Positions 5,986-52,950 of a stretch of DNA of 64,000 nucleotides are shown piece after piece. Source of the stretch: Naegleria gruberi (Eukaryota); the NCBI GenBank assembly GCA_000004985.1, contig GG738904.1. The stretch is one strand, 5' to 3'. Position numbers and translations under genes: made by a program. The notes under the pieces are model-generated. The model was not told the origin of the DNA. It saw only the letters and a list, made by a program, of their open reading frames with translations, and did not search any database. Each line of letters starts with the position of its first letter. Within the stretch, counting starts at the first letter, position 1.

Positions 5986-6277
5986 GATTATAATATTTTC
6001 AAATTCCTTTAAACTTCAAAAAAGAGAAATTCCCTTAAAAATATCATTTTCTTAATCTTGATTCAAACCTTTTAAAACTTTCGAATATTTCACTAACATT
6101 ATCATGTTTAATACTTGGATTCTCATACGTTGTTTGGTAATTCCTCATATTTGAACCTATTTTAAACATAGCCTACTTTAACCAGTTATTTCAATTTGTT
6201 CTCAAATTACAAAAAATAACACAATCATAAACAAGAATTACAACAATTAGTATCAAGTTTGGATTTTGATTTGAAAA

Positions 6278-6880
6278 ATGTTAATAAAATCAGATATTTT
6301 AATAAAAGATGAAGGATATTGGAAACAAGATGAAAAAACCATCGAATCAATTACTGGAAAACGATTCAGAACAATTTACGAAATTCTAAGTGAAGAGGTG
6401 GATTTAAATTTGGATAATTATAATAGTGATCGACATATTTTGAGATCAAGAGTTGAAACCTTATATGAAAAGGCAGAGAATAAGGCAATGCCTTTGTGTT
6501 TCGTATTGGTAAACATTATTCGATACATTAAACAGTTGAATATTCTGGTTTGGGGAGACAAAACAAACCCCATCAAGCAACTAACATTCCTCTCCATGTT
6601 TGGAATCCCATCTGATGTGAGTGGAGTTACTCGAATCGAGGCAATTGATTCTGACAAGTGCAAAGTTTCACAAAATAGTTTCGTCTTGGAGGTACTATCC
6701 ACAAAGGTGATCAACAACTACAACATATACACCAATAGGCTTGTTAATCACCCAATATGTGAGAACTGGTACGATGGAATCAAAGTGAACAATTACACAT
6801 TTGTTGATTTGACATGTGAAGATTTTTATGTGGCATACAAGAAATCAATTCCTAAACTCATTTGCACCGTTCTATGGTGA
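6278..6880 (+). CDS. Hypothetical protein (200 aa); member of a small paralogous family with a second, disrupted copy at 27721-28311
   Basis: Intact ATG ORF. About 90% nucleotide identity to the inverted copy at 27721-28311. No known domain. Confidence 0.45.
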   Translation: MLIKSDILIKDEGYWKQDEKTIESITGKRFRTIYEILSEEVDLNLDNYNSDRHILRSRVETLYEKAENKAMPLCFVLVNIIRYIKQLNILVWGDKTNPIKQLTFLSMFGIPSDVSGVTRIEAIDSDKCKVSQNSFVLEVLSTKVINNYNIYTNRLVNHPICENWYDGIKVNNYTFVDLTCEDFYVAYKKSIPKLICTVLW

Positions 6881-7129
6881 GATAATCAACAACAATCATT
6901 CCTGGATTTCCATGGAATCAGTTTCTTATTTAGAATTCAGTTGCCCATTGATGATTTTAAAATAATTTATTGAACGTGTTGAAAATTGTTGATTATTTTT
7001 AACAAATCTGTTTTAACGTATTTGCTAAAGCCTTAATAATTCATCGCGAACTACTGCTAGTTTAAGAATTAATTTTTTAATTTTTATAAAAATTGATAAA
7101 GAGAATCATCAATTCATCATAATGGAAGA

Positions 7130-21799: not shown

Positions 21800-22220
21800 T
21801 TTTAATTATTTGATGTTGATGCTCAAAAGGCATAAGCAGATGATTCGTGCTGTTTTGAGGGGGTTTGTTTGAGCGTTCGTTAAATTTTGATTTAAAAAAA
21901 ACCTGAGAAAAATTGTTTTTTTAATTTTATTATAAAGTCTTAAGGTTTTACCGTACACTACAGAGGTTTTCCAATTTAGCAATGGACTAGAAAGTAGCAG
22001 GTAACGTCCTTTTTTTTGAGGTGAGCCCCAAATCAATGTAATCAGTTGAATATTCCATTGACGGTCGCCCTTATTGAAAAATGCTGGATGATGCAGAAGT
22101 GAAAATTACAAAAGACTCTTATTCTCGCTATCTGTATTATATACTCTTAATTATGGCAATTAAGATGAAATTAAATTAATAATCAAATAATAAAAAGTCA
22201 GGAAAAACAAGAAGAAAAAA

Positions 22221-23147
22221 ATGACTTCGGGAAGAGCAAAGCCAACACCAATATTTCCCTTGACTGCTCAAATAAAACCATCCGATTCATTATTCTTGAA
22301 AAAGTCAAGTGGTGGCGGTGCTAGTAGAAGTAAGAAATCAACCTCATCAAATACAACAACACCACAAAGTTCGGAAAAGAAGTCAACAACGACATCTTCA
22401 TCACAGCGAAAAAGACAACAACAAGGATCATCGTCATCACAGAGAAAAGATAATTCCGATAGTAGCAGTGATGATGAAGAAGCTTCTTTGAGTACATCCA
22501 ATAATAATAACAATACAAGTGGAAATAGATCCAATACTCTGAATAGTAGTGCTGGCTCTACAAGAGATGATTCTCTGCCACCCTCTAATTTATTCACTCG
22601 ATCGAGTAGGAGAAAAAGAGCTCCTGTTGTATTGGACAGCAATTTCTCCTATGAACTTTCAACAGAATCAGAAAAAGAGGAAGAGCAGATCAATAGAAGA
22701 AAGAAACAGAAAAAGACAACAACTGTTTCCAAATCTAAAGCTTCTTCTTCTGCTGCATCAGTTATTTCAGTAGTGAGCGATGATACACCTCCCCCACATA
22801 GTGAAAAATCACAGGAAATGTCTCATTCCAATATTAATGGTAACAGTAATAGGATTTCATCTTCATTTGTAGAGCCAAGATTGGATATTTCAAATACAAG
22901 TCGCAATGCAGAGAAGTCATCGAAAAGTAAGACACCAACCAAATCTCAATCTAAATCATCATTGAACTCTACTCCTGTTGCAGCAATTCCTACCGAAACA
23001 CTAGCCAGTGAGGCACCAGAAGAGCCAGAACTTCCACCTATTCCAAGAGGCAGATCCAGAGCTCTCAAACAATTCAAAGAGCACCAAAATTCACTTTACA
23101 AGATTGTTAAAATATCTTTGGAATCCTTCTCCGATTTGAAGAGGTAG
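22221..23147 (+). CDS. Hypothetical serine-rich basic protein (308 aa)
   Basis: ATG ORF of low complexity (S/K/R/T-rich). Possibly a nuclear protein. Confidence 0.4.
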   Translation: MTSGRAKPTPIFPLTAQIKPSDSLFLKKSSGGGASRSKKSTSSNTTTPQSSEKKSTTTSSSQRKRQQQGSSSSQRKDNSDSSSDDEEASLSTSNNNNNTSGNRSNTLNSSAGSTRDDSLPPSNLFTRSSRRKRAPVVLDSNFSYELSTESEKEEEQINRRKKQKKTTTVSKSKASSSAASVISVVSDDTPPPHSEKSQEMSHSNINGNSNRISSSFVEPRLDISNTSRNAEKSSKSKTPTKSQSKSSLNSTPVAAIPTETLASEAPEEPELPPIPRGRSRALKQFKEHQNSLYKIVKISLESFSDLKR

Positions 23148-23249
23148 ATATTACAATAACTATTGTAGAGTTTTATATTCTTCCTAAACATTCCGAACAA
23201 GGAGTGTTGACGTCAATGTAATAGAATCTTCAAGAAAAAGAAGAAAAAA

Positions 23250-24233
23250 ATGAAATCAAACGTAAAGTCTCATCATGTCGGGCTCTGCTTGATGATTGTG
23301 ATCATCATGTTGTTGCAACAGGTTATTCTCATCACGGGACAAGTTAATAACCGTCCAATAATTGGAATTATGGCACAACCAACATATAAGAAAACATATG
23401 GAGAATCCTATTTGGCTGCATCATATGTGAAATGGATTGAATCGGGTGGTGCTCGTGTTGTTCCAATTCCCTACGATCTTCCACAGGAAAAATTAAATTT
23501 ATTATTTAATTCTTTGAATGGAATTGTTTTTCCAGGAGGTGGAACTTCTTTGAGATACTCTGAATATTACTATACATTGAAATTCTTTTTTGATAAAGCA
23601 ATCGAGGCAAATAATAGAGGTGATTATTTTCCAATTTGGGGAACTTGTTTGGGATTTGAAGCATTGAATGTATTGGCTGCTGATAATCCAGATGTTTTAC
23701 ATTTTGGATTTGATTCAGAGAATTTAAGTTTGAATTTACATTTTGTTAATGATTACAAGAATTCTAGAATTTTTGGAAAGGCACCACTTTCAGTTATGCA
23801 AATTTTGGCTGAACAAAACGTAACCATGAATAATCATATGGCAGGTATAACACCTGAAACTTTCATGAAGAATGACAGATTGAATCAATTTTACAAAATG
23901 TTATCTGTTAATGCTGATAGAAAAGGACAAGTGTTTGTATCAACCATTGAAAGTTTGAAATATCCAATTTATGGAACTCAATTCCATCCTGAAAAGATTC
24001 AATTTGAATTCAACTATGAAGACATTAATCACTCATACGATAGCGTATTAGCTAATCAATATTTTGCCAACTTTTTCGTAAATGAAGCCAGAAAGAATCA
24101 ACACAAATTTAGTTCATTTGAAGTGGAACAATCCTATAGCATTTACAATTTCAATGCCAAATTTACATTCCCAGAAATTAGCAAAGATTTTGTTCAAATT
24201 TATTACTTTAATGCTAGTAGAATTAATTTTTGA
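23250..24233 (+). CDS. GGH: Gamma-glutamyl hydrolase (peptidase C26, folate conjugase) with signal peptide
   Basis: Hydrophobic N-terminal signal sequence. PIIGI...YVKWIESGGARVVPIPYD matches the GGH N-region, WGTCLGFE is the catalytic Cys motif, and GTQFHPEK is the catalytic His region. Confidence 0.8.
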   Translation: MKSNVKSHHVGLCLMIVIIMLLQQVILITGQVNNRPIIGIMAQPTYKKTYGESYLAASYVKWIESGGARVVPIPYDLPQEKLNLLFNSLNGIVFPGGGTSLRYSEYYYTLKFFFDKAIEANNRGDYFPIWGTCLGFEALNVLAADNPDVLHFGFDSENLSLNLHFVNDYKNSRIFGKAPLSVMQILAEQNVTMNNHMAGITPETFMKNDRLNQFYKMLSVNADRKGQVFVSTIESLKYPIYGTQFHPEKIQFEFNYEDINHSYDSVLANQYFANFFVNEARKNQHKFSSFEVEQSYSIYNFNAKFTFPEISKDFVQIYYFNASRINF

Positions 24234-24251
24234 AAGAAATAATACAATTTA

Positions 24252-26276
24252 TTAATATCTTCTATTATTGCCAGAATAGCCATTTCTACCATTTCCATAA
24301 TTGTCATAATTTCTATTATTATTACCATGATAATTATCATTGTTTCTATGATTATTGCCACGATAATTATTATTGGATGATGAGGAATGATTATTTCTAT
24401 TAGAATTCTTGTTTGTGTGATATCCTTTCTGTTCACTCTTTTTCACACAATTTCTCAAGTATTGAGCAATGGTAGTGGCTGAGGAAAATTCATTATTAAA
24501 ACCAACATATTCGAAATATTCCTCAAAGGAGCTAACTTTTTGGATTTTGAAAACTTCTCTCTGAAGAACATCTTCAAGAGATTCGTCAGATTTAGTTTTT
24601 GGAGGAGCTCCAAAATTAATATCATACATTCTGCCTAATTCTGAGAGAGGCAAATCTCCATATGCTTCTACAACATTTCTCAAGAAGAAGACATGGAACA
24701 TGATTAATTTACAAGAAACCATATTTTCTTCCCATGATTTCTGACATCTTTCATAATTGTTTTGATCTGAATGAATATTGGAAAGTTTTGGATGTTTCTT
24801 AACCACCCATAATGCATTCCTAGTACCAGTTTCATCAACCACTGCTGATTTGATTGAATCCCATGTGAAACCAGAAGGACCTAAAATGGTCAACTTGGGA
24901 AGAAACTCACCAATATTTGGACATGCATTTTTAGTTCTAAACTTTTCATCATTGATAAAGTTTTGAACTTGCTTTTTGATATTATCAAGAGAATTTGGAA
25001 AGTTTTCCATCAAATAGATCAACCATCTATGGAAATATAAATATCCATACAGTGCCTTAATAGAGGCATGTGTGACACCTTTCATAATTTCAACAACCAT
25101 ATTGTTCATCAATTTACAAAGTAATTCGACATATGGTTCGGCACTATCGAGGTCAATTTGTCCATTTCTGTTTGGAGTGAGAAGTTTAGGATAATATTCC
25201 AAAAGAAAGGAAAGTGAATTTTTGAAAACTGAGAATTTTGCATGAGTTTGATTAATGAACAATGGAATCCAACCATGAATTGGTTGACCCCAAACACTCT
25301 TGTACACCTCCTCATGGAAGAATGATGATTCACTTATGAAATCAAGTGGAGTTTTGATTTCCTTGATAGTTTCGTCATTTTTCAACTCAATCCAAAGTCC
25401 AATTCCAAGTGTTTCTTCCTTGTATGAAGATTTAGAATGGAAACAAATCAATTCTCGTGAGTAGGTAAGATATTTACAATCACAAGCATGTTGGAAAGCT
25501 TTGCAAACTGTTTCTACTCGTTTCAAATCAATAAACGAAAGATAGGAAAAGATGTGGATAAGTATTTCATTTGGAAAATCTTCAAAAGAAATCATTGTTT
25601 TGGTTAAAGAGTTTGTGGAATTTCTAATGCCAACAATTGAACTTTCGTCAAGTTTCTCAATAAGAATCTTCTTGAGAGCTTGTTCGGATTCGTCCTGACT
25701 TTCGAATTTTCTCTTCTTTAAACCAGAATTGAACACCTCCTCAACATTCCAATGAGGAGCCATCGGATAAATCTTTCCTTCTTGTGGCCAATGTCCAGTC
25801 TCTTGGACACGAGTAGCTCTAGAACCTTTAATATCTTTCTCAATGTGAGATTGATGAAGATGCTCCTCTTCCAATAAGAAAGCTTGCAATTGCAATAGAA
25901 TGGACAAACATGAATAACTTGAACTCCATCCCATATATGGTTCTTCAGAGTGATGTGTCTCCAACATGTCCAAACAAATAAATTGTCTATAGACATGGGA
26001 ATGATACAATGGAGTGAGACATTTTACAGTTGGAGGTGAATGAGGATAATCATTTGGAAAGGTAATTTCCAAACTAATGATAATGCCATAATATTTGGAT
26101 GATTGTGGAGCTAATAAAGTTGCATACCAGTGAAATAAATTATTTTCAAAGGGTTCGGCGTAGACTGTATCGAGTGGATTATTCTGAATTTCAATGAAAT
26201 CTTTGGATAAACGTTTTAAAGCTCTGCTGTGTGGAGTTGCTGCTGTTGAATTTGATGAATTTGATGAATTTGACAT
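24252..26276 (-). CDS. Fusion protein: N-terminal ubiquitin-conjugating (UBC/E2) fold + central F-box + C-terminal unknown domain + N/R/Y-rich tail
   Basis: UBC signature RALKRLSKDFIEIQNNP...FHWYATLLAPQSSKYYGIIISLEITFPNDYPHSPPTVKCLTPLYHSHVYRQFICLDML with the active-site Cys retained. F-box LILIHIFSYLSFIDLKRVETVCKAFQ about 120 aa downstream. The track ORF runs through the 50-N gap (MVK+X); I place the start at ATG 26276 (MSNSSNSSNS...). Confidence 0.6.
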   Translation of the reverse strand: MSNSSNSSNSTAATPHSRALKRLSKDFIEIQNNPLDTVYAEPFENNLFHWYATLLAPQSSKYYGIIISLEITFPNDYPHSPPTVKCLTPLYHSHVYRQFICLDMLETHHSEEPYMGWSSSYSCLSILLQLQAFLLEEEHLHQSHIEKDIKGSRATRVQETGHWPQEGKIYPMAPHWNVEEVFNSGLKKRKFESQDESEQALKKILIEKLDESSIVGIRNSTNSLTKTMISFEDFPNEILIHIFSYLSFIDLKRVETVCKAFQHACDCKYLTYSRELICFHSKSSYKEETLGIGLWIELKNDETIKEIKTPLDFISESSFFHEEVYKSVWGQPIHGWIPLFINQTHAKFSVFKNSLSFLLEYYPKLLTPNRNGQIDLDSAEPYVELLCKLMNNMVVEIMKGVTHASIKALYGYLYFHRWLIYLMENFPNSLDNIKKQVQNFINDEKFRTKNACPNIGEFLPKLTILGPSGFTWDSIKSAVVDETGTRNALWVVKKHPKLSNIHSDQNNYERCQKSWEENMVSCKLIMFHVFFLRNVVEAYGDLPLSELGRMYDINFGAPPKTKSDESLEDVLQREVFKIQKVSSFEEYFEYVGFNNEFSSATTIAQYLRNCVKKSEQKGYHTNKNSNRNNHSSSSNNNYRGNNHRNNDNYHGNNNRNYDNYGNGRNGYSGNNRRY

Positions 26277-26304
26277 TTTAATTGAAAGACAATTGATGAA
26301 ATTG

Positions 26305-26354
26305 NNNNNNNNNNNNNNNNNNNNNNNNNNNNNNNNNNNNNNNNNNNNNNNNNN
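26305..26354. other. Assembly gap (50 N)
   Basis: Run of 50 n. A duplicated sequence ends exactly at its left edge. Confidence 0.99.
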
Positions 26355-26992
26355 CTTGACCAAAATGGTTGTTCCTCATCTGATTGAATCCATTCAAATA
26401 ATTTTTCATAGAATATTTTAGGATGTTGTAAAATTCTTTCTTTTTTAACATGAAAAGAGGCGCAACACCATCTAGTAATGCTTGATGGTACTTTACCCAA
26501 TTCATTTTCGAATAGTTTCTTCCAATATTTTTCAACTATACGATAATTAGGATCTGTTTCATTCAAATGTCTGTGAAATTGTGGATTTAATGAAATGTAT
26601 TCATATTTACCCCAATATAAACTCTCCACAACAGGTACAATATCAACATAATGCCACGATTTCCTATGTCCATGAATAAAAATCATATTTTCAGGTAAAT
26701 TTTCATAATAATCAATAATAAATTTCAAATAACTTGAAGCTTCATGTCCCCTATTTTCTTTTACTTTAAATGATGGATTTGGATCCAATCTATCATAAAC
26801 TACGTGTGGAATATGAGGGAAATGTGTTGCTAACCACGATGTGTCCTCATTAAATCTTGAAACTATTATCATGTTTTTAGTATTGGTAAAATTATCATGT
26901 TTTGGAGTATTGTGGTGTATAACTCCGAATTGATATAAAACAATAGTCATGAGTGTGAGGAAAACTAAACTCCACAAAATACGTTCTTTCAT
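26355..26992 (-). CDS. Type II membrane protein resembling the DUF3431 family (putative glycosyltransferase-like), 3' end lost in assembly gap
   Basis: N-terminal signal anchor. RGHEASSYLKFIIDYYENLPENMIFIHGHRKSWH resembles the DUF3431 core. The ORF runs into the 26305-26354 gap; the track's post-gap extension to 26216 is an artefact. Confidence 0.5.
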
Positions 26993-27191
26993 TTTTTTTT
27001 ACAACACTTGACAGGGGAATTTAACAGTTTCGCTAGGTAATGTTTTGGTAAATCCAAAGTTGGTGTAATATTTTCAAAATCAAAAACCACAAGAACCAGT
27101 TCGATGTAGTATGTTGCCTCTTCATCATCACCTCTTTCAGGTACCTCAATTACATTTTATCTGATTAAGGTCTTGATATAAAAAATGTGCT

Positions 27192-27262
27192 CGTCTCGTG
27201 GTGTAATGGTAGCATAGTGGACTTTGAATCCATTGACGGAGGTTCGATTCCTCCCGAGACGG
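27192..27262 (+). tRNA. tRNA-Gln (anticodon TTG)
   Basis: Cloverleaf folded by hand: acceptor CGTCTCG/CGAGACG, D-arm TGGTGTAATGGTAGCA, anticodon stem GTGGA/TCCAT with loop CTTTGAA (TTG), T-arm GGAGG-TTCGATT-CCTCC, discriminator G. Close to canonical eukaryotic tRNA-Gln. Confidence 0.85.
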
Positions 27263-27294
27263 TAAACGTGGCGAGCCATTGAGATTTGCAAACT

Positions 27295-27344
27295 NNNNNN
27301 NNNNNNNNNNNNNNNNNNNNNNNNNNNNNNNNNNNNNNNNNNNN
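27295..27344. other. Assembly gap (50 N)
   Basis: Run of 50 n. A duplicated sequence begins exactly at its right edge. Confidence 0.99.
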
Positions 27345-27460
27345 TCTGAATTTCAATGAAATCTTTGGATAAACGTTTTAAAGCTCTGCTGTGTGGAGTT
27401 GCTGCTGTTGAATAGGAAGAATTTGACATTTTAATTGAAAGACAATTTGATGAAATTTAA
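27345..27460. repeat. Duplicate copy of the 5' end and 5' flank of the UBC-F-box gene (copy of 26184-26304)
   Basis: Near-identical to 26184-26304 (tctgaatttcaatgaaatctttggataaacgttttaaagctctgctgtgtggagttgctgctgttgaa...). The copy lacks the SNSSNS-encoding tandem repeat. It encodes MSNSSYSTAATPHSRALKRLSKDFIEIQ on the minus strand, then hits the gap. Confidence 0.7.
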
Positions 27461-27720
27461 AAGATTTTGATGGAATGTGGAGTCTGAGAAATCCGAATCT
27501 GTGTTTCGATTCAATTTTTTGTGAATGTTGATCGATTTTTGATTAGCTTGCAAATCGATTAAAAACTGATTTTTTTAGAGTTAAAAATAGAAGATCAAAA
27601 TTTTTCAACAGGTTCAATAAATTGTTTTAAAATTCATCAACTGATCAAATCATTTTAGAACCTTATTTTGAATTCTAAATAAGAAACTGATTCGAAATCC
27701 AAGGATTGTTGTTGATTATC

Positions 27721-28311
27721 TCACCATAGAACGGTGCAAATGAGTTTAGGAATTGATTTCTTACATGCCACATAAAAATCTTCACATGTCAAATCAACAA
27801 ATGAATAATTGTTAACTTGGATTCCATCAAAATAGTTATTCCACATTAGATGTTCAACATTCCTGTTGGTGTTATTTGTAAAGTTAAATGCAGATACTTC
27901 CAAGACGAAACTATTTTGTGAAACTTTGCACTTGTCAGAATCAATTGCCTAGATTCGAGTAACTCCACTCACATCAGAGGGGATTCCAAACATGGAGAGG
28001 AATGTTAGTTGCTTGATGGGGTTTGTTTTGTCTCCCCAAACCAGAATATTCAACTGTTTAATGTATCGAATAATGTTTACCAATACGAAACACAAAGGCA
28101 TTGCCTTATTCTCTGCCTTTTCATATAAAATTTCAACCCTTGATATCAAAATATGTCGATCACTATTATAATTATCCAAATTTAAATCCACCTCTTCAGT
28201 GAGAATTTCGTAAATTGTTCTGAATCGTTTTCCAGTAATTGATTCGATGGTTTTTTCATCTTGTTTCCAATATCCTTCATCTTTTATTAAAATATCGGCC
28301 TTGAGCAACAT
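27721..28311 (-). pseudogene. Disrupted paralogue of gene 6278-6880 (in-frame TAG, diverged 3' third)
   Basis: About 90% identical to 6278-6880 over the first 360 nt. GAG->TAG at about 27945 creates a stop (IEAIDSD context), after which the two small track ORFs (27949-28311, 27721-27903) continue the homology. Confidence 0.5.
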
Positions 28312-28656
28312 TTTTCAAATCAAAATCCAAACTTGATAGGTGCAGTTCTTGTTTATGATTGTGTTATTTTTTGTAATTTTTTTGTGATTTTGATTGGGAT
28401 TGAGGTCTTAATAAACAATTTATAATGAATCATCTTATGGATGGAATGAAAAGAAAAGACTGATTGTTGGATAAAGTCAATTTGAAAATTTTTACAACTT
28501 AATGTGAGGTATGAAAAAAATTGCATGCCTGCCGAGGCTTCCAAAAAAAGAAATATAGATAATTTTTGAAAAATAAAAACGCCACTACCTTGATATGGAT
28601 GTCTAGTAGGGATCTATGAAAAATTGGGCAAAAATATTAAGAATTAAAAATTACTA

Positions 28657-28727
28657 CTCGAGTGCCGGGAATTGAACCCGGGTCGCCAGAGTGACAGTCT
28701 GGAATGCTACCACTATACCACACCCGA
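28657..28727 (-). tRNA. tRNA-Asp (anticodon GTC)
   Basis: Reverse complement TCGGGTGTGGTATAGTGGTAGCATTCCAGACTGTCACTCTGGCGACCCGGGTTCAATTCCCGGCACTCGAG. Anticodon stem CCAGA/TCTGG with loop CTGTCAC, T-arm CCGGG-TTCAATT-CCCGG. Matches eukaryotic tRNA-Asp. Confidence 0.85.
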
Positions 28728-28980
28728 TTTCACATTTATTCTGAAACTATCCACTACCCTTATCTGTACAGAACGAATATTTAATTTTTTCTACTGAACT
28801 ACTAAAGTGTTGCACTTTCTTTCAAATAGAAAATAGTTTTATGACTCTATTCTCCTCTCCTTCTCTCAAGAAAGAAAATATTAATTTATTTTGGATACTT
28901 CCTTTTTATTAGCTAGTATCAGTAAAATTTATTCTTTCTTTAATAGTATTGTGAAATAATTTGTTCGAAGCCAAATGATT

Positions 28981-29160
28981 ACAATTTGTGATGCTTGGTG
29001 GTATTTTACCCAATTCATTTTCGAATATATTTTTCAACTATTCGATAATTATCATCTGTTTCATTCAGATGGCTGTGAAATTGTGGATTTAATGAATGTA
29101 TTCATATTTACCCAATATAAACTCTCCACAACAGGTACAATATCAATATAAAGGTATTTT
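28981..29160 (-). pseudogene. Degenerate fragment of the DUF3431-like gene (copy of about 26400-26650)
   Basis: Recognisable nucleotide similarity (...tttacccaattcattttcgaata...ttcaactat.cgataatta...tctgtttcattca.atg.ctgtgaaattgtggatttaatgaa.tgtattcatatttaccc.aatataaactctccacaacaggtacaatatcaa.ataa) with indels and no open frame. Confidence 0.45.
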
Positions 29161-29407
29161 TGTATTGGTCACTCTAGTTGTTGTAATGCCAGGTTTTGAG
29201 GCTTAGAATTTAACGAAAATGGTTTGCCTTCTTGATGTGTTTTGAAGCTATGGGAGTAAACTACAATTTCCTTTTTGCTTAAAATTTAATCTCAAAACGC
29301 GGCATATTTTCAATTAATTATCAAAAACCAAAAGAACCAGTTCAGTCTACATAAATTGTTGCTTCAATTAAATATTATGATTAAGGTGTTGATTTAGTGA
29401 ATGTGCT

Positions 29408-29478
29408 CGTCTCGTGGTGTAATGGTAGCATAGTGGACTTTGAATCCATTGACGGAGGTTCGATTCCTCCCGAGACGG
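29408..29478 (+). tRNA. tRNA-Gln (anticodon TTG), second copy
   Basis: Identical 71-nt mature sequence to 27192-27262. Upstream and downstream flanks are also similar (aaacgtggcgagcc.ttgagattt). Confidence 0.85.
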
Positions 29479-29626
29479 TAAACGTGGCGAGCCCTTGAGA
29501 TTTTTCTTATTGAACTTTTTCTGTTTAACAACATGCAATACGCCTCAACAGAGATAGAACTCACTACTCAGTTCACCTATTGGTTACTGCTGCTATTAAG
29601 CAATTGAAGGAATAAGTTAATAATAA

Positions 29627-30640
29627 TTGCTTGTGTTTGCGTTTACGTTTTACAATTTCCAGAAAAAAATGAAAAGACAGAGCAACGAACATTCTGCTCT
29701 TCCGAAAAGAAAGAAGCAACAATCAGTTGAGGAGCCTCCTTCAAGAGAACAACAACTCCAGCAAACATCTCCTACTATCGGATCAACAACAATAATTAAT
29801 CATGTTGATGATGAAAATAATAACAAAATAATCATGATGATGACGAATATTCCTCTGGATATTATCACTAATGAAGTCTTTACATTCTTTCCATGCCAAT
29901 GGATTTTTCGGGTGGCTTTCTTGGTTTGCAAGGCTTGGTATAATTCTGTGAATAATTTCAATCTATTGATAATTCAAACTAATTTGAATGTTGACACTCA
30001 AAGGAATCAGTCATTCTTATTGTGTTGTAAGGAAGGGAGATTTAATTCTGCCAGAGAATTTTGTGTGAAGGGTTTTGATTTACATCATTACAAACTATCC
30101 ATTCCGATTGTAAACTTTACAGCTCTACAGGTATTGGATCTTTCGTATAGCAAATTGGGAAGTTTAGGTATTAGTATTCTATCTCAGAATAATGCAAACC
30201 AATTGAGAGGATTAAGAAAGTTTACATACAGATACAACGTATTAACGCACAAAGGACTAGAAGTCCTTTGCTCACTTCCGTTAACTAAACTGAAAGAATT
30301 GGATCTTTCTTTTAACAGGATTGGCGATACTGGATGCACTGTTTTAAGGAAAGCACCTTTTTTGAATTCTCTCACTTCATTGGAGCTATACGACAATAGG
30401 ATTGGAAATCAGGGATTCTTGACATTGGTTGATACTAACTTTCAATCTCTTCGTTTCATCAATTTACGGTTCAATGCTGTAGACCATATAGATTGTGAAG
30501 TTTTCAACAGTGAGAAACTGAGTAACAAACTTCCTAACATTCAGTCAATTAATTTACTTTTCAATAAGATTGACATCAGCGAAATTACCCATTTAAACGC
30601 AAATGTTAAAAAGCTAATAGTTGTGAATATGGTAAATTAA
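29627..30640 (+). CDS. F-box / leucine-rich repeat protein (337 aa)
   Basis: F-box-like IITNEVFTFFPCQWIFRVAFLVCKAWYNSV, followed by LRRs (LQVLDLSYSKLGSLGISIL, LKELDLSFNRIGDTGCTVL, LTSLELYDNRIGNQGF...). The real start may be the internal Met of MKRQSNEH. Confidence 0.6.
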   Translation: MLVFAFTFYNFQKKMKRQSNEHSALPKRKKQQSVEEPPSREQQLQQTSPTIGSTTIINHVDDENNNKIIMMMTNIPLDIITNEVFTFFPCQWIFRVAFLVCKAWYNSVNNFNLLIIQTNLNVDTQRNQSFLLCCKEGRFNSAREFCVKGFDLHHYKLSIPIVNFTALQVLDLSYSKLGSLGISILSQNNANQLRGLRKFTYRYNVLTHKGLEVLCSLPLTKLKELDLSFNRIGDTGCTVLRKAPFLNSLTSLELYDNRIGNQGFLTLVDTNFQSLRFINLRFNAVDHIDCEVFNSEKLSNKLPNIQSINLLFNKIDISEITHLNANVKKLIVVNMVN

Positions 30641-31533
30641 TTCACTAAACAGTAGAGTGTATAAAATTTGGCTCACAGGTCCTTACATTACTAATTGGAA
30701 AAACAAGATCAGAGTCACCACTCAATCAAAAATAGATATTGAAAATCCTAATATTGTGTTCGAATTGTATTGTAAAATGGTGTCATGAATATTTGAATAA
30801 TGAACCTGTCTACGCACAAATGGAACCGATCATTTTCTGTGAACAGTTTATGTTACCATTCAAGATATACCAAACTTTAACAGATAACTAATTATTCAAT
30901 TAATGTTGAGAGATGAGAGACCAAATGAACAAATATTTCATCACCTATTCTTCACAGGGTTGGTATTCGTTGCAAATTGATGAATTTGTTGTAAAATGGA
31001 ATTACTTTATCAGCCAATATATTATACAAATTCCTCAAATATTCGACGTTAATTTTTGCGTTACCTTCTACTGCTAGTTCTGGTTCAAGAAAAGTGATAA
31101 GAACGTTTCGATTAATTATGATTATTGCCAATTCTAGTACTAGGTTTAGAATTGTATTGTGAGATCAAATACATTTGTTCTGTACGACTAGTTCTACTTT
31201 TCATATTAAACAAGTCAACCTTCATGTCTCTTCATCCAAAAGACATAGATTCATGTTGTGCGAAGTAACTGTTGGTTACTTATTAAGAAAATGGTTAATG
31301 CGTTTTTAAAACATAGGCAAATCGCCTCAAAAACGTTTAATATTATTTGGAACGGAATCATCTCAACCTACAACAATCCCAACACCTCCTCTTCACAGCA
31401 CAGCTCTCTATTAAAAAGAGGTAACAAATTCTACAAAAACAGATTCAAACAAACAAAAAAAACCAAGTAACTATCCACTCCTAGCTGCCAATATCTATCT
31501 CAAGATACCATCTCAGCGACCTAACCTTTCGAT

Positions 31534-32292
31534 ATGAAGTCATCATCTGCTGCTGCTGCTGGAATAACTTTTGTGCCATTTTCAATGGAGAAGTCGAAAC
31601 CAATAGCTCAAGCTGACAATTCTATACAATTTGTGGATGATTCATCCAAATATCATAGAGAAATACCACCACCACATGCAAACCCAACTCCTATAAGACA
31701 TGTTTCATCTCCTCTAATTCACAATTCATCAACAAAACAATACATTTCGAATAATAACAAAGGCAGTCCTCTCATGATGCATGTGTCCACCAGCATGTCT
31801 AAGCAAAACAGAAGAGCTTCAGTGTGCTCGTTATCTGCCTCTGTGACATCCAACTCTTCAACCAGTGATAAATCAACAGATAGCTCGAACTCATCCAAAT
31901 CTGCCAAACAAACCCTCGAATCCCAAACATTTCAATTCAAAGTGCATGATAAGGAGCAACCAAAGTTGGTATTTTTCAATCTAGTTACCAAGGAACAAAT
32001 CGAGAAAAAGAGAAAGTATGTAAGAAAAAAGCCAGTTTCTGCATCTGTACAAATAATTGAAAAGGAAGAATTTTTATCCCCTTCTCTGTGTGGAAAGAGA
32101 AATTCAGAACATGTAAATTACCAATCCAATCCATCCAATAATACTGAACTTTCACCATCCGCCAATTCCACCTCTACCACTCATTGTAATCTACCTAGAA
32201 TTTCATTTGATTCTCTCAACCTTTCTCCACCTCAATCATTTATTCCCTCAAAGAGAAGAACCTCAATCTCAATAGCCGAGTTATTAAATTAA
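31534..32292 (+). CDS. Hypothetical serine-rich protein (252 aa)
   Basis: ATG ORF of low complexity. No domain recognised. Confidence 0.35.
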   Translation: MKSSSAAAAGITFVPFSMEKSKPIAQADNSIQFVDDSSKYHREIPPPHANPTPIRHVSSPLIHNSSTKQYISNNNKGSPLMMHVSTSMSKQNRRASVCSLSASVTSNSSTSDKSTDSSNSSKSAKQTLESQTFQFKVHDKEQPKLVFFNLVTKEQIEKKRKYVRKKPVSASVQIIEKEEFLSPSLCGKRNSEHVNYQSNPSNNTELSPSANSTSTTHCNLPRISFDSLNLSPPQSFIPSKRRTSISIAELLN

Positions 32293-32423
32293 AATCTATT
32301 TTTTTCATTGTCAATTCTAAAACTCAATCAATATTTGAAAAACCAATCAATTTTCCATCTTTCTTTAAAAAATTTATTTCTAACAAGTTAAGGAAAATTG
32401 AACAAAATTTATAAAAACAAAAA

Positions 32424-33803
32424 ATGGCCGAACAACCAGAGAATGTTAGCTTGTTGGATTTTTCTAAAAAGAACACTGAACAAGTTCAAACATCAATAGA
32501 TAATGCATCGTATCATCGGAAGGAAATTAAACCCTATGAAGGAGAGGATATTAATATTTTGGAGGATGTAATGGAATATATTAATAACAAAACATCACCC
32601 ATTACAAGTGGTACCACAAAATTTAATCATCATCATCAACAAGAACAACAATTAGATGACTCGAGTGGTACTAGTAATATTCGCACGAAAACAAAAATAT
32701 CAACACTAGGAGAATTGTATGAAAAGATGAAACAAAGTGATACTGTGCAATATGGATTGGCAGGTGTTATAAGTGGTATGTTTCTCTTCATCTTCATATG
32801 AAGTCAATTATTTCCGATCCTCAGGACTGTGTACTGCTACAGCTACTCAACCTCTAGATTGTGCCAAGACTAGAATTCAAGTCTTTAAACGATTAAATAT
32901 GGAACTCCCTACAACAAGTTGTACATCACAGGGAGTTTATCAGAAAATTATGAATTCTAAATCAATAGCAATGCTTTCTAGTATTTATAGGAATGAAGGA
33001 TGGAAGGCTCTATATCGGTAAGTCATTTGATGATGGAATTTAAATGGATGACCAGAAATCAAACAGAGGTTTACCACCGTCTCTTCTTTCATCGTGTGTT
33101 TCAATGTCAATTTTCTTCCCTATTTATGAAATTTGTAGAAAGAGATTTTCAGAATCATTCGGAACTGAAACGTGGCATCCTAAAGTAATTGTTCCTGCAG
33201 TTTTATCTGCTTGGGCTTTTTCATCAGTACTAGTTTCTCCAATTTCACTTGTAAAAGTAAGATTACAAACATCATCAACAATTTCTCTTTATTCCGAATC
33301 AAATCCTTCGACAACCTTTTTACAAGTAATTAAAAGCATTTACAAAAACGAAGGATTGTCTGGATTTTATGCTGGTTACAGGTAGGTTTTCCATTTCAAC
33401 AATTTGTGACAATATTCTAAATTACAGAGGAGTTGCAATTTCTGCTACTGTATTTTGTTTATACTTTTCAATTTACGAGCCGTTGAAATTATATTGTGTA
33501 AATACTATGAACTTACCATACCTTGCTGTTGTACCAGTACTTTCACCTCTTACAATGATTGCTGTTTCAACATTGACTTATCCAAATGATTTAATTATTA
33601 GTAATCTTCAATTCCAAGGAAAGAAAAGTGCTGGAGGTGTGCATTACAATGGATGGGTTGATGCTTTCAAATCAATTTACAAATCTGGAGGTGTTAGGGC
33701 TCTTTACAGTGGTCTTAATACATATTTACTGAGATTCTGTTTGGGTACCATTGTTACACAAACAAGTTACGAAACCATTTTAAGGTTAATGGATAAACGA
33801 TAA
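32424..33803 (+). CDS. Mitochondrial carrier family (SLC25) protein with ~115-aa N-terminal extension, 4 exons: 32424..32775, 32825..33017, 33067..33381, 33428..33803
   Basis: Three carrier repeats with PLDCAKTRIQV, PISLVKVRLQ and P-NDLIISNLQ signatures, plus EGWKALYRG/EGLSGFYAGYRG motifs. Three short introns (GTATGT...CCTCAG, GTAAGT...AACAG, GTAGGT...TTACAG) restore one 412-codon frame across four track ORFs. Confidence 0.75.
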
Positions 33804-34012
33804 ACTTTTTGCTCAATAACAAGTGGGCAAATTTTGTAGTCATTTGACATCGTTCAAAAAGTGGAAAATTATAATGATTGAAATTGCTTTCGGGTTTTTG
33901 AATCCGATGTTTCCTCCATTCCAGTATTATTCGTTTGTTTATTATTTAATAATATTGAGCACAGGATATTTCACCCTAATAATAAGTTTTCAAATAAAAA
34001 TAATAAGAAAAA

Positions 34013-35119
34013 ATGCAAAAATCAAAATTATTGATTAGCTTGTTTTGTTTGATGGTGCTTTTTGCACTCTTTGTTCAAGCTGATGGATCGTCGGGTGTTG
34101 TTCTCGAATTAAATACACAAAATTTTGAAACCACCATACAATCAAATCCACAAAAAGTTTTCTTTATTAAATTCTTTGCTCCATGGTGTGGTCATTGTAA
34201 AAGATTGGCTGGCACTTGGTCCGAATTAGCCAAAGAACTTGAGGATTCATCTGTTCCACACTTCCAAAATGTTCAATTAGCAAAGGTTAACTGTGATGAA
34301 CATCCAGATATTCGTAGAAAATATTCTATCAGAGGATATCCAACACTTGTTTTATTTGTTGGTGGAAAGCCTGTTACTGAATATTATGGTTATAGAACAG
34401 TTCCAAAATTCAAATCATTTTTGGATGATGTCTTTTCATCAGCTAAGAGTTCTGGATCTGTTGATCAAGTAACTGAAGTTGAATTGGAATCCAAAATTAA
34501 GAATCAAAACAGAGCTTGGACTGTCATGTTTTACAATTCCGAATCAGCTCAAACTAAACAATTTGACTCAAACTTCCAACAACTTGCTACCAATAATAAG
34601 GATACAAATAATTTCTTTGCCAAGATTGATTGTAATCAAGAAAAGGAGTTATGTACAAAGAGATTAACTATTGATCTTACTAATGGTCCTCAATTCGTCA
34701 TCTTTACTGGATCTGATAAGATGATGTCACAATTCAAGGAACAACCATCTGTAGAATCACTCCAAAAATTCATCACCAGTGGACATGTTAGTAGTAAGGT
34801 TCAAATTCCAGGACCAGTTGATAATACACCAACTATTCTTCACTTTTTGAATGACCATCCATATATTAGTATTGGTGTTGTTACCATGTTCTGTATTGCT
34901 ATTTGTGGTATCTTTTTGGCAATTCTCTGCATGTCTGATGATTCTGAAAAGAAAGGCAAGACTGAACCAGCTGAAAATACTGAAAATACTCAAACCAATC
35001 CAGCCAATAACTTTGATGTTTCCAGTGATGAAGAAGGTGACAAGGTTGTTGAAGCAACATCCAATGAAACTGCTCCATCCAATTTGAAGAAGAGAAATTT
35101 GAGTTCCAACAATGAATAA
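34013..35119 (+). CDS. Thioredoxin-domain membrane protein (PDI/TMX-like): signal peptide, thioredoxin domain, C-terminal TM
   Basis: Signal sequence MQKSKLLISLFCLMVLFALFVQA, active site FAPWCGHCK, C-terminal hydrophobic helix IGVVTMFCIAICGIFLAILCM, then an acidic tail. Confidence 0.75.
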   Translation: MQKSKLLISLFCLMVLFALFVQADGSSGVVLELNTQNFETTIQSNPQKVFFIKFFAPWCGHCKRLAGTWSELAKELEDSSVPHFQNVQLAKVNCDEHPDIRRKYSIRGYPTLVLFVGGKPVTEYYGYRTVPKFKSFLDDVFSSAKSSGSVDQVTEVELESKIKNQNRAWTVMFYNSESAQTKQFDSNFQQLATNNKDTNNFFAKIDCNQEKELCTKRLTIDLTNGPQFVIFTGSDKMMSQFKEQPSVESLQKFITSGHVSSKVQIPGPVDNTPTILHFLNDHPYISIGVVTMFCIAICGIFLAILCMSDDSEKKGKTEPAENTENTQTNPANNFDVSSDEEGDKVVEATSNETAPSNLKKRNLSSNNE

Positions 35120-35399
35120 ACCTAATTAAATTATTTAAAAATTTTAATTAACCAGAAACCTCTTTATCAATACAACCTAATATATTGTATTAAATATGCA
35201 ATTCAATATCCAATCCATGAGTACCACAAATTAATTTATTGAAATAATTTTCAATGTTTATCTGTGGACAACAAACTTTAATAGGTAACGACACCAAAAA
35301 AAAATTCACAACATTTTGAAACGCAAAGGAAATTTTCCCTTTCATTTCGTTTGCTAACAACCCACACATAACAAGAAGAGAGGAATTGAATAATACAAG

Positions 35400-37454
35400 A
35401 TGATTCGCTCGGATTTGTTTTATACAGAGGAACAAACACCATCCTCTTCTATCAATATGGTGGATGATGATGTATTATTTTCATCAGCAGCAACAGACTC
35501 GTCATCTCATCATCAGCCTCCTAATCAGGACCCTAATGCTCCAATCGATATGAATATTTGGATGCTATCCGTTGNNNNNNNNNNNNNNNNNNNNNNNNNN
35601 NNNNNNNNNNNNNNNNNNNNNNNNAATTATTGTTAGGTATTTAGTGTTGGGTAAAAAACATTGATTAATTTATTCGATCCTGAGGAATACTTTTATTTGA
35701 GATTGTTTATCTGGGTTACTTATAATTTATGTTTTATAATGTTTGCACTTGTGTTGACTGCTCTAGTTGCTCCATCTGCTGAAGGATCTGGTTTGGCAGG
35801 TATTAAAGCTATTTTGAATGGTGTCAGAGGTTTAAAGGATGTTCTAAGTATGAAGACAATGATTGTGAAATATTTATCATTACCTGCAGTCCTTACAGCT
35901 GGTTTATATATCGGTAAAATGGGTCCTTCCATTCACATTGTCACTTGTGCTGCTAAGAATTTACTGAAATTTAGATTATTCGAGTCCATAAGAAAAACCA
36001 AAACTCTGAAACAAGAAATGATTGTATGTGGTATTGCTGTCGGTTGTGCAGCTAACGATGGTGCTGTCGTGGGAGGTGTATTGTTTGGAGCAGAGTTAGT
36101 TGGTACCTATTATTCTTTGAGAAACTATTTCAAGAGTTTTTATGCAGCTTTTATTGCCTGCATGACTTCTCGTTTATTGCACAGTGCTGTCAATTTGAAT
36201 ATCAAACCATTCTTGACATGGAATGTTAAGATTGTTCCTCCATCTTTCACTCTTCCAGAATTATTTTTCATGCTTTTTGTTGCCATTGTAATGTCTTTTG
36301 TTGGTATTGCAGTAGTCTTTGTCAATGAACAATTGCTTGTTTTGAGAGATAAATATGGTAAATTGCATCTTGGACCTTTCAAGTTTGCCAAGTATGCCAC
36401 TAACAAATTGGTAATTTTAACAGAAAACAGAATTATTTTCACAATTATTATTACTCTCGTTACTAGTTTCCTTTCATTCCCTCAAATGATTGGTAAATAT
36501 ATGAGTATTGGTGGTGTGCCTATTTTCGAAGAATTATTAATGGCAAAACCTTTAACAACAGTGAATGGCGCTAAGGGAGAATGGATTCAAGGAAATATTT
36601 CAGAAGTATTTATTACAATTTCTATATTTATTACTGTCAGATACATTTTGGCAATTCTTACAACAGTTTTGCCTGTTTCTGGTGGTTCATATTTGCAATT
36701 GTTGATTATTGGAGCTTCATTTGGTAGACTTGTAGGTGAAGGTCTTGCCTTTATTTTACCTGATGGTTTTAGTCCAAACCATCCGATTGTTCCAGCCAGT
36801 TATGGTCTTGTTGCTGCTGCTGCTTTGACTAGTTCACAAACGCAGGCCTTCAGTTCTGTATTTATTCTGCTAGAATTAACAGGTCATGGTGTTCACTTAC
36901 CTGCATTGGGAGCATCCTATATTGGAGTTGTTATTTCCAGATGGTTGTCTTACAGTGCCTATGACTTTGTTATCAAGTTTAGAAAATGGCCAGCTGTCCT
37001 TGAATCAACAACTGACTCTGACGATATTAGAGTTAAATACGTCATGCAATATGTTGATAGTTTGCCAATTTTGGAAGAAAAGGCAAGCTTGAGAAAGATT
37101 GGAGAATTTTTGGAAAAGCCAGATTTGGCCAAGACTATTCCAATTGTTAATAATAAGAGTGATTTACTTCTTGTTGGTTGTGTCAATACTAAGAAATTAC
37201 AAGATTATTACAATACTATGAAACCAACTCTTGAAGGCAATCCTGACTATGATACAGAAATTGAAATTGAAAAGAATACTTGTCCAATTACCATTTCTGA
37301 AGATACACCTCTCGTTTTAGCTCACTTACTCTTCTCCAAATTGAATTTGGATGACGTGTTCGTTGTTTGGAGAGGTCGTTTAATTGGTCAAGTTCAAAAG
37401 TCTAGTATTATTGCTGAGCTTACTGATAGAAATGCTGGTTTTGGTGATGCTTAA
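35400..37454 (+). CDS. CLC-family voltage-gated chloride channel/transporter with C-terminal CBS pair; interrupted by assembly gap 35575-35624
   Basis: CLC motifs GSGLAGIKAILNG (GSGIP-type), GKMGPSIHI (GKEGP-type), GVLFGAE and PVSGGSY, plus C-terminal CBS-like segments. The N-terminal ORF (35400-35574) is separated from the main ORF by the 50-N gap, so the exon structure there is unresolved. Confidence 0.7.
35575..35624. other. Assembly gap (50 N) inside the ClC gene
   Basis: Run of 50 n. Confidence 0.99.
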
Positions 37455-51230: not shown

Positions 51231-51310
51231 ATGTAACAAATACACGTAGATGTCACCAAATCAAGCATACCTAAAATGGTGCTACATGGCTGGTGAGTTG
51301 GGAACCCCAG
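51231..51310. repeat. Conserved ~80-bp element, copy A (partner at 52868-52950)
   Basis: atgtaacaaatacacgtagatgt.acc.aatcaagcatacctaaaa..tggtg.tacat.gctggtgagttgggaaccccag shared at about 90% identity with copy B, in the same orientation. Contains an internal inverted repeat (atgtaaca ... tgttacat). Confidence 0.6.
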
Positions 51311-51392: not shown

Positions 51393-52793
51393 TCATTTGC
51401 TGTTTTTATTTTTGTGTTCCTTAAATATAGTGAACAACTGAGGTAGTTCTGTATATGCATATTTCATAATTGGACGGTGCCAGGTGAAAAGTGATTCATC
51501 ATTTGTGGATTGACCAAGAATATTTTGCTCAACAAGTTTTGAACAAATTTTCCTATGTTGAGCTGTTGATGGAAAAAATGAATTATTTCCAGCAATGAGA
51601 TCCAAGACGTCAACTATTTCACCTCCTTCGTTATCATAGATTATCCCTATTATGTTTGCTAATTCTATAGCTTCTGTTCGAATCATTCCATCAACAACTT
51701 TCTTAATGTCTTCAGCTGGTACTTGAATGTGACCATTAACAATATCGGAAATAATTTCATTATGAGGTTTTGATTTCAGAGAAGGGTGATGATCTTGCAT
51801 AATGGGGATCAATTCTTTAAGTACACTATAAATCTGGCCAAAGTGGCCTCCTAATTTCTTGATATCATCATTTCTCAGGAATGGATATTGCTCTAATTCA
51901 GTTTGGGTGGTGTAAGAAAACGTGTACTTCTTCAGTCTAGATGTGTGTCCAGATAATTTCCTTAAATCTGTGAAGGTGGAAAAGTTGCTAGAGACATGGA
52001 CACCAGTGGCCAATTGCTCCTCAACGAATTGAAGTAAGTTACCGGCTATTATTTTACAATCGGGGTCGTTGGCTATATAGTCACTTACAACAATAATAGA
52101 AACAGGAGTACCATAGTTAGCTTCCTTCTTTAGTTGTTGCAAAATGTTTTTCAGGGCAACCATTATTCTGGCAATTGGAACGTCAGATTCGTCTGTTCTT
52201 CTTTGGCTGATCCCAAGTGCAAGAAGAATGTTTTGGTATGGCATATTCGCTCTCAATGGAATGTATATTACATTTCTTCTATTTTCCAGTGCTTTCTCAA
52301 CAGACATTGATTTTCCAGAATTAGATGGACCACTGATATATGCCAACTGATTAACGCAGTCGTATGAAAACATTGCACCAAGTACTTCTGATCCTGCTTT
52401 AGGCAACAATTTCATACCATTAATCATTGGTGTAGTTGGTATGAATGGTTGTGCGAGCTTTGATCTAATTTCCTTCTCAAGAGGCAAATACTCGTTGTTT
52501 TGATTATCTTCATGAATACCTGTAAGAATGTTATAAGTTTGATAAGCACTCAAGACGGAAAAGATAATGGCCAGAGAACCTGACCAAGTGATCCATATGT
52601 TTGTGAATTTCTTCCAATTGCTTTCTTTTCCTTCTTCGTTGGACCCTTGGTCAAAGTTTCGCAAGTACCGTGTCATATGAAAATGTTTGCTAGGTGTAGG
52701 TTGTTTAAAGGTGAAAAATTGTGGTGCACAACACTTGCAATTGTTGACGAATGTTACAAGTCTCACTAGTCTTAATCTGCCCAATATTTTCAT
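51393..52793 (-). CDS. Hypothetical P-loop NTPase with N-terminal transmembrane segment (466 aa)
   Basis: Walker A GPSNSGKS, a downstream hhhhD Walker-B-like IIVVSDY, and an N-terminal hydrophobic helix. No closer family assignment from sequence alone. Confidence 0.5.
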   Translation of the reverse strand: MKILGRLRLVRLVTFVNNCKCCAPQFFTFKQPTPSKHFHMTRYLRNFDQGSNEEGKESNWKKFTNIWITWSGSLAIIFSVLSAYQTYNILTGIHEDNQNNEYLPLEKEIRSKLAQPFIPTTPMINGMKLLPKAGSEVLGAMFSYDCVNQLAYISGPSNSGKSMSVEKALENRRNVIYIPLRANMPYQNILLALGISQRRTDESDVPIARIMVALKNILQQLKKEANYGTPVSIIVVSDYIANDPDCKIIAGNLLQFVEEQLATGVHVSSNFSTFTDLRKLSGHTSRLKKYTFSYTTQTELEQYPFLRNDDIKKLGGHFGQIYSVLKELIPIMQDHHPSLKSKPHNEIISDIVNGHIQVPAEDIKKVVDGMIRTEAIELANIIGIIYDNEGGEIVDVLDLIAGNNSFFPSTAQHRKICSKLVEQNILGQSTNDESLFTWHRPIMKYAYTELPQLFTIFKEHKNKNSK

Positions 52794-52867: not shown

Positions 52868-52950
52868 ATGTAACAAATACACGTAGATGTAACCTAATCA
52901 AGCATACCTAAAAAAATGGTGTTACATAGCTGGTGAGTTGGGAACCCCAG
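52868..52950. repeat. Conserved ~80-bp element, copy B
   Basis: See copy A. Lies about 75 bp upstream of the P-loop gene start codon. Confidence 0.6.

Follow-up and report, generated by a model that had tools for sequence, protein, structure and literature searches.

An intact and a decayed DUF3431 gene between tRNA genes of Naegleria gruberi: a possible tandem duplication seen through a gapped draft assembly

Does repeated sequence on either side of two assembly gaps in the genome of Naegleria gruberi NEG-M record a genuine duplication around tRNA genes, or the way in which a draft assembly was put together? The stretch analyzed here (the window, 64,000 nucleotides of contig GG738904.1, with a G+C content of 33%) is part of a 297,120-bp scaffold of the Sanger draft genome, and three of its open reading frames (ORFs) are exact matches to EFC38836-38838. 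It contains three runs of exactly 50 N (26305-26354, 27295-27344 and 35575-35624), and because all three have exactly this length, the length looks like a placeholder. We refer to the sequence up to 26304 as contig A, to the 940 bp at 26355-27294 as contig B, and to 27345-35574 as contig C. The original prediction for this locus offered two options, a real tRNA-associated duplication that is generating pseudogenes, or a mis-scaffolded contig between the first two gaps. These are both the right ones to consider, and a third that it did not state is that contig B is the other haplotype of 28739-29503.

Among these options we favor a real local duplication that the Sanger draft lays out only in part and that would stand as a direct tandem repeat in cis, a reading to which we give about an even chance. 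At its core is a gene with a DUF3431 domain, found with an intact frame on contig B and in decayed form on contig C, in each case beside a tRNA-Gln gene of identical sequence. The features on which this comparison draws are as follows.

26305-26354: gap 1, a 50-N placeholder
26355-26992, minus strand: DUF3431 gene (PF11913), codons 1-212 of 264, in a frame that is intact up to the cut by gap 1
26993-27190: spacer between the divergent DUF3431 and tRNA-Gln genes, of which 27068-27190 is homologous to 29304-29406
27191-27263, plus strand: tRNA-Gln(UUG) copy 1 (ARAGORN; Rfam RF00005, 68.8 bits)
27264-27294, plus strand: trailer of tRNA-Gln copy 1, in which 27264-27287 agrees with copy 2 at 23 of 24 positions and 27288-27294 (GCAAACT) departs from it
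27295-27344: gap 2, a 50-N placeholder
27580-28379, minus strand: copy of the block at 6204-7003 (87.5% DNA identity), with a coding sequence at 27721-28311 that has a TAG at 27949-27951 and a 12-bp deletion
28657-28727, minus strand: tRNA-Asp(GUC) (ARAGORN; RF00005, 57.1 bits)
28739-29406, minus strand: decayed segment between the tRNA genes, called V_C below (alignment with a composite of contig B and a relative's contig; tblastn)
29407-29503, plus strand: tRNA-Gln(UUG) copy 2 (29407-29479) with a 24-nucleotide (nt) trailer ending in a T5 terminator (ARAGORN; RF00005, 68.8 bits)

On contig B, all 212 DUF3431 codons are open and match PF11913 with 118.9 bits (gathering threshold 25) over profile positions 2-184 of 219, and the protein is 53% identical to N. 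lovaniensis C9374_011407. The gene is unannotated because the gap cuts it. It had been taken for the 3' part of a DUF3431 gene, which is wrong, as contig B holds the 5' 212 codons. The accompanying claim of a second, decayed copy of the block between the gaps holds up, with matches at 87.6% (26475-26651 and 28988-29151, E 3e-57) and 93% (27146-27287 and 29364-29503, E 6e-54) and a weaker one at 27068-27102 and 29304-29343. The start given for that copy has to be moved, as the extreme 3' end of the gene is kept at 28912-28992 and the copy spans about 28912-29503.

We call the two versions of the segment between the tRNA genes, bounded by the 5' ends of tRNA-Asp and tRNA-Gln, V_L (1164 nt, with the intact DUF3431 gene) and V_C (668 nt, window 28739-29406). 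V_C consists of a spacer that does not align, a remnant of the DUF3431 3' end (the last ~27 codons, 28912-28992), a fragment from inside the gene (28988-29151), unrelated filler of 152 nt (29152-29303), and what is left of the upstream spacer (29304-29406). Three pieces of DUF3431 are left in contig C, with 193 nt deleted and 416 nt replaced, and tblastn finds the pieces in different frames; judged by its sequence, this remnant is a pseudogene. The alignable parts of V_L and V_C differ by 28 substitutions in 351 nt (8%) and by large indels. A mutation bias like that of repeat-induced point mutation was considered as a cause of fast decay and rejected, given 11 transitions against 17 transversions and nine GC>AT changes against nine AT>GC changes.

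The extent of the repeated unit becomes visible through a close relative. L007, a 1556-bp contig of the ENA metagenome assembly ERZ929261 (PRJEB11402), equals the left end of contig B over its positions 1-163 (window 26517..26355, 163/163) and then carries, past that edge, the missing DUF3431 C-terminus, a tRNA-Asp gene at 503-573 and an intact 196-amino-acid gene at 962-1552. The composite DUF3431 protein of contig B and L007 has 264 amino acids and aligns with the 263-amino-acid N. lovaniensis orthologue through SRVLE.TWG.IF...LCDIT.C; the missing C-terminus was searched for and is absent elsewhere in the window. Two further contigs of the same assembly match the window, L001 at 99.3% (22205-24497) and L008 at 97.8% (29739-32598), and we take the assembly, from these matches, to hold a very close NEG-M relative, 97.6-99.3% identical over short contigs. 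It can thus be used as an independent second strain for checking the NEG-M reference. We found no paper that mentions project PRJEB11402.

Compared with contig C, L007 492-1556 and window 28738..27717, which run from tRNA-Asp through an orphan gene, show 26 differences in 1065 nt; this is of the order seen elsewhere between the strains, where L001 shows 16 in 2290 and L008 differs from the window by 2.2%. About 11 nt 5' of tRNA-Asp, near 28739, similarity falls from ~98% to 50-77%. The composite of L007 and contig B is collinear with contig C 27717-29503, in three blocks. A view of L007 as uniformly 87% diverged from contig C, and thus as a clear paralogue, was withdrawn in light of this per-segment profile, in which tRNA-Asp separates a stretch of ~98% identity from one that is poorly similar.

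Two consequences follow for the map. As read from L007, gap 1 is not 50 bp long: L007 runs 1393 nt past the left edge of contig B, and in the relative B's DUF3431 gene is followed by tRNA-Asp, not by the 28 nt of upstream sequence of a ubiquitin-conjugating (UBC)-F-box gene with which contig A ends. If the scaffold order is right, gap 1 hides no less than the 157 bp of the DUF3431 3' end, and probably about 1.65 kb in all. The repeated unit, too, would be larger than had been thought and would comprise the gene of a 200-amino-acid family, tRNA-Asp, DUF3431 and tRNA-Gln. The original prediction correctly placed a tRNA-Asp gene at 28657-28727 (minus strand) and a disrupted paralogue of 6278-6880 at 27721-28311, and described them as lying between the two copies; they are not cargo between copies and appear to belong to the unit, because both follow B-type DUF3431 sequence in the relative. 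The repeats are real, every pair of them being highly significant and well above chance; the intact and decayed versions are collinear, and in the relative the B-type sequence leads on to the 3' end of DUF3431, to tRNA-Asp and to the orphan gene.

The same comparison brings in the main alternative, less probable in our view, that the two versions are haplotypes in trans. NEG-M would be heterozygous between tRNA-Asp and tRNA-Gln, with contig B the intact haplotype and contig C 28739-29406 the decayed one; contig B, not merged into contig C, would have been pushed by the scaffolder into the nearest break, 1.4 kb away, and contigs A and C would be unmerged overlapping ends with an allelic 9-bp difference. 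The true haploid content would then be one tRNA-Gln, one tRNA-Asp and one UBC 5' end. With respect to tRNA-Asp and the orphan gene, the relative's intact DUF3431 lies just where the decayed version lies on contig C, the identity of the flank is at the level of orthologues when set against L001 and L008, and the sequence outside the two tRNA genes is highly identical on either side, as in allelic flanks. Contig B is also short, ending with 328 nt of its unique segment still to come, which fits half coverage, and NEG-M is reported to be heterozygous (cited in PMC9928731). Such haplotypes would have to differ by 8% in substitutions and by three large structural differences, several times the divergence between strains in neighboring DNA, and an independent assembly break would be needed within 1.4 kb.

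The ends of contigs A and C carry the second repeat of the locus.

24252-26276, minus strand: UBC(E2)-F-box gene NAEGRDRAFT_59412, 674 amino acids in one open frame (100% identity to P0007)
26183-26304, minus strand: right end of contig A, overlap copy 1, with UBC-F-box codons 1-31 and 28 nt upstream (alignment)
27345-27457, minus strand: left end of contig C, overlap copy 2, with 28 UBC codons (27345-27429) and 28 nt upstream (alignment)

That the 5' end of the UBC-F-box gene recurs across the gaps had been predicted and is borne out: 26183-26303 and 27345-27457 are identical in 111 of 122 alignment columns, with 10 gap columns (BLAST E 2e-41), and the alignment reaches both contig ends, starting from the first base of contig C and ending at most 1 nt short of A's right end. 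The copies differ by one 9-bp unit of a coding repeat, two to three clustered substitutions, a 1-nt indel in a T-run upstream of the ATG, and A's final base. The frame of copy 2 stays open (MSNSSYSTAATPHSRALKRLSKDFIEIQ), and at the protein level A reads SNSSNSSNS where C reads SNSSYS. NEG-M thus has two distinct versions of the UBC 5' end, one on contig A and one on contig C, and the N-terminus of NAEGRDRAFT_59412 exists in two versions. It is highly improbable that the overlap is a single sequence read twice, with base-calling errors in poor read ends as the differences. The T-run indel and the final-base mismatch, both within 11 nt of A's end, would suit such errors, but the clean in-frame loss of a 9-bp unit and the codon changes (TCT, TCC, TAT) are unlike base-calling noise, and the main difference is flanked by perfectly identical stretches, at a distance of 45-55 nt from where A ends and 65-80 nt from where C starts. 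The third gap (35575-35624) serves as a control: its flanks neither overlap each other nor match elsewhere in the window, and 50-N gaps are therefore not always contig overlaps.

End-to-end overlaps of this kind have a known artefactual counterpart. False segmental duplications that arise from haplotype mis-assembly have been described as duplicated overlapping contigs, defined by overlaps of >300 bp at >95% identity within 300 nt of both contig ends, and as duplicated contained contigs, with >93% of the small contig aligned at >95% identity (Kelley and Salzberg 2010, PMC2864568). Our locus shares with those cases a Sanger whole-genome assembly of a heterozygous diploid, placeholder gap sizes, and a layout in which the end of one contig is repeated at the start of the next but one and the small contig between them resembles nearby sequence. 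This likeness, together with an A/C alignment that reaches both contig ends and so lies where the published overlaps lie, speaks for haplotypes. In length and identity the A/C overlap falls below the published thresholds, with 122 columns at 91%, and contig B does so as well, aligning to contig C over 177 + 142 + 35 nt of its 940 nt (~38% of B, at 80-93%). Unlike the published cases, moreover, the end of contig B departs from contig C and matches the UBC gene.

It is this end of contig B that offers a candidate junction between two units. Contigs B and C cease to be homologous at 27287/29503, within the terminator T-run of tRNA-Gln copy 2; beyond it B reads GCAAACT and C reads TTCTTAT, a match at one of seven positions, which speaks against a pair of haplotypes. 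Looking on purpose for a match to the UBC gene at this end, as a tandem junction would predict, we found the following.

25500-25509, plus strand: TTTGCAAACT in the UBC-F-box gene (V257 C258 K259), equal to the last 10 nt of contig B; proposed left unit boundary at 25503, with TTT microhomology

The 10 nt are comprised of the seven that depart from contig C and the shared TTT, and lie in the UBC reading frame (VCK). By chance, such a match in a target of 1.9 kb turns up for ~2% of comparable 10-mers taken from the window and for 17-25% of 7-mers, and as a tandem junction the match is suggestive, short of proof. The original prediction had not seen this candidate of 7-10 nt.

A tandem duplication would put these observations together in the following way. 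The unit would run from the 5' 259 codons of the UBC-F-box gene through its upstream region, the orphan gene of 196-200 amino acids, tRNA-Asp, DUF3431 and tRNA-Gln to the 24-nt trailer, in the direct arrangement [R - V_L - Q][R - V_C - Q]. Here R (25503-26304 plus 27458-28739, ~2.08 kb) would hold the UBC 5' part, upstream region, orphan gene and tRNA-Asp, and Q would be tRNA-Gln with its 24 nt. The left unit of 3387 nt, visible only as 25503-26304 and contig B, would have an intact DUF3431 gene and, probably, a second tRNA-Asp and an orphan gene that is likewise intact. The right unit of 2839 nt would be 27288-29503 with its first ~0.67 kb hidden, and would bear a truncated UBC copy, the orphan gene with its TAG, and DUF3431 as three remnants. 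Gap 1 would have a true size of ~1652 nt, and gap 2, holding the second UBC 5' copy, one of ~673 nt. The junction would fall in the tRNA-Gln terminator T-run, with 3-nt microhomology (GAGA-TTT-GCAAACT; junction sequence GGCGAGCCATTGAGATTTGCAAACTGTTTCTACTCG), and would make a new open frame of 295 codons. The outer parts (~98%) may have been homogenized by gene conversion over long uninterrupted homology, stopping at the replaced spacer; alternatively, the tandem may have come from unequal exchange between two already diverged haplotypes. We infer that both versions lie in cis, in scaffold order, and that the sequence hidden in the gaps equals the relative's.

This tandem arrangement explains several observations at once. 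The end of contig A, the composite of L007 and contig B, and contig C 27345-29503 are collinear, on the same strand and in direct orientation, and the order in which mate pairs placed A, B and C is the one that the arrangement requires. It accounts as well for the two UBC 5' versions, for B's left neighbor in the relative, for the end of homology at a UBC-like start, and for the confinement of decay (truncated UBC, TAG, DUF3431 remnants) to one unit. The unit lengths are self-consistent, since 3387 nt less what DUF3431 has lost by deletion is nearly 2839 nt. A number of points weigh on the other side. The suffix of A and prefix of C also have exactly the geometry of two unmerged overlapping contigs of one locus; the junction is 7-10 nt at a contig end, with the chance level given above for the 7-mer; L007 belongs to a different strain and could be a chimera joined at tRNA-Asp; and the N. 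lovaniensis loci lend the arrangement no synteny support. Divergence is moreover uneven, at 8% plus indels between the tRNA genes, two substitutions in 113 nt in the A/C overlap, and the 26 in 1065 from tRNA-Asp to the orphan gene. A single duplication event without gene conversion does not predict this, and it is therefore a weak point of the tandem model. L008, the relative's contig to the right of the region, starts at 29739 and misses the informative tRNA-Gln flank by 236 nt.

It is unlikely that the intact module of contig B (tRNA-Asp - DUF3431 - tRNA-Gln) stems from a dispersed duplication, with B belonging to another locus, on this scaffold or further off in the genome, and misplaced here and contigs A and C forming one locus. 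Misplacement is commonest among very small contigs, the end-overlap geometry of A and C fits one locus, the DUF3431 orthologue of N. lovaniensis sits in a different neighborhood without tRNA genes nearby, and L007 could be chimeric at the 71-nt tRNA-Asp. But L007 joins B-type sequence to contig C's tRNA-Asp, spacer and orphan gene at ~98%, contig B was placed by mate pairs and its reads are not confusable with those of contig C at 80-93% identity, and B's end matches the neighboring UBC gene. Nor does the missing DUF3431 3' end occur at any other place in the window, and gap 3 has no related flank.

Returning to the tandem reading, the locus resembles tandem segmental duplications with decay and gene conversion in having two collinear direct copies, a candidate junction with 3-nt microhomology and disabled genes in one unit, and in that the long uninterrupted homology stays at ~98% and the segment broken by indels has diverged. 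Disabled genes confined to one unit are the usual fate of a redundant copy. It departs from them in that the candidate junction has only 7-10 nt and the gaps conceal the greater part of one copy of the conserved sequence. The locus thus falls within known kinds, as a local segmental duplication whose redundant copy is decaying, seen through a draft assembly. For biology it is a further example of a young local duplication of this sort, and of mild interest only should the tRNA genes turn out to be breakpoints.

The tRNA genes themselves are ordinary. All three exceed the RF00005 threshold of 29 bits and have a cloverleaf and anticodon, and Rfam revealed no other RNA genes in the region or the window. 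The visible trailer of tRNA-Gln copy 1 has a T3 run only and no run of T4 or more, as against T5 in copy 2 and in tRNA-Asp. Should the tandem junction be real, copy 1 has lost its RNA polymerase III (Pol III) terminator. In yeast, tRNA genes act as breakpoints of rearrangement and duplication, as replication-fork pause sites and fragile sites. Here, similarly, the right end of the unit falls in the tRNA-Gln terminator T-run and the switch in identity lies 11 nt 5' of tRNA-Asp; unlike in yeast, no retroelement or long terminal repeat was seen beside the tRNA genes in the region read, where no search was aimed at them. That breakpoints and identity switches coincide with both tRNA genes is mildly unusual and, at a single locus, may be coincidence. 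It is conceivable, though we consider it doubtful, that the tRNA genes delimit a cassette, such that the segment from tRNA-Asp to tRNA-Gln comes in two versions about four times more different than the DNA just outside, with the junction in the Pol III terminator. Were the tandem real, Naegleria tRNA genes would be breakpoints and limits of gene-conversion or recombination tracts, and the 295-codon frame would join an E2 domain and truncated F-box to 36 codons that run through tRNA-Gln in antisense, and would have its own copy of the UBC promoter region.

For users of the reference, the original warning that gene models here are unreliable was correct; neither gene models nor tRNA counts nor gap sizes between 25.5 and 29.5 kb are to be trusted. 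The region may have one or two tRNA-Gln genes, one or two tRNA-Asp genes, and two or three genes of the 200-amino-acid family, and the sequence missing behind the two "50-bp" gaps amounts to at least 157 bp and probably to ~2.3 kb.

The 200-amino-acid family bears on the claim that the locus is generating pseudogenes, and has a further member near the start of the window.

6204-7003, plus strand: third family member, coding sequence 6278-6880 flanked by 74 nt (5') and 123 nt (3'), an inverted duplicate of 27580-28379

The duplication is one of DNA (6204-7003 against the reverse complement of 27580-28379), and 27721-28311 is in one frame an 87% amino-acid paralogue of 6278-6880, apart from the in-frame TAG at 27949-27951 (GAG>TAG) and the 12-bp deletion. 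The claim about pseudogenes stands firm where the DUF3431 remnant is concerned. With the 6278-like copy the case comes down to a single base, because the deletion and a divergent patch are common to the intact ENA orthologue P0054, encoded on L007; at the TAG both this orthologue and 6278 read GAG, and a single base could be an error. The copy at 27.7 kb is a mosaic relative to 6278, at ~97-98% identity in its first ~400 nt and again in its last ~130 nt, and what lies between has the deletion and the patch, which is strongly divergent. The orphan family of 196-200 amino acids (6278-6880, 27721-28311 and L007 962-1552) has no Pfam match, and ORF 6278-6880 is absent from the protein collection and appears unannotated. 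Among 5.8 billion proteins, the sole homologue of the 6278 protein is P0054, of 196 amino acids. A mobile element was considered and rejected, on this one homologue and on a flank alignment that shows no terminal repeats, no formal test having been aimed at mobile elements.

Comparison with a related assembly, which had been proposed as a check, was informative for the close relative's L007 and uninformative for N. lovaniensis, where at the DUF3431 locus (L002, PYSW02000004.1, 439189-459980) and the two UBC-F-box loci (L003 and L004) only the query genes match the window and tRNA genes are absent within 10 kb. The DUF3431 orthologue on L002 lies in an unrelated neighborhood, and because no tRNA genes occur within 10 kb of it, the association of DUF3431 with tRNA genes is specific to the N. 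gruberi lineage. When metagenomes were scanned with the DUF3431 protein, the relatives that came up were only 34% identical, and exact look-ups with the UBC-F-box and LRR proteins returned no contig.

NAEGRDRAFT_59412 itself has the Pfam domains UQ_con (amino acids 22-138) and F-box (232-270). Fusions of an E2 ubiquitin-conjugating domain with an F-box are conserved in Heterolobosea, among N. gruberi paralogues and in N. lovaniensis, N. fowleri, Willaertia magna and Acrasis kona, and such proteins are numerous on metagenome contigs as well.

Other repeats came to light when the window was compared with itself. Diverged internal tandem repeats of 66-71% identity lie at 3548-4181, inside ORF 3448-5985, with offsets of ~75-225 nt, and at 57293-57886, with offsets of 72-360 nt. 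An 83-nt non-coding sequence is present twice at 91.6% identity (51231-51310 and 52868-52950), adjoining ORFs 48847-50883 and 51393-52793, both on the minus strand. It has no Rfam match, and the folds predicted for it are not clearly above those of shuffled sequences (z -0.9 to -2.4); a shared 5' region and a regulatory element are both possible readings.

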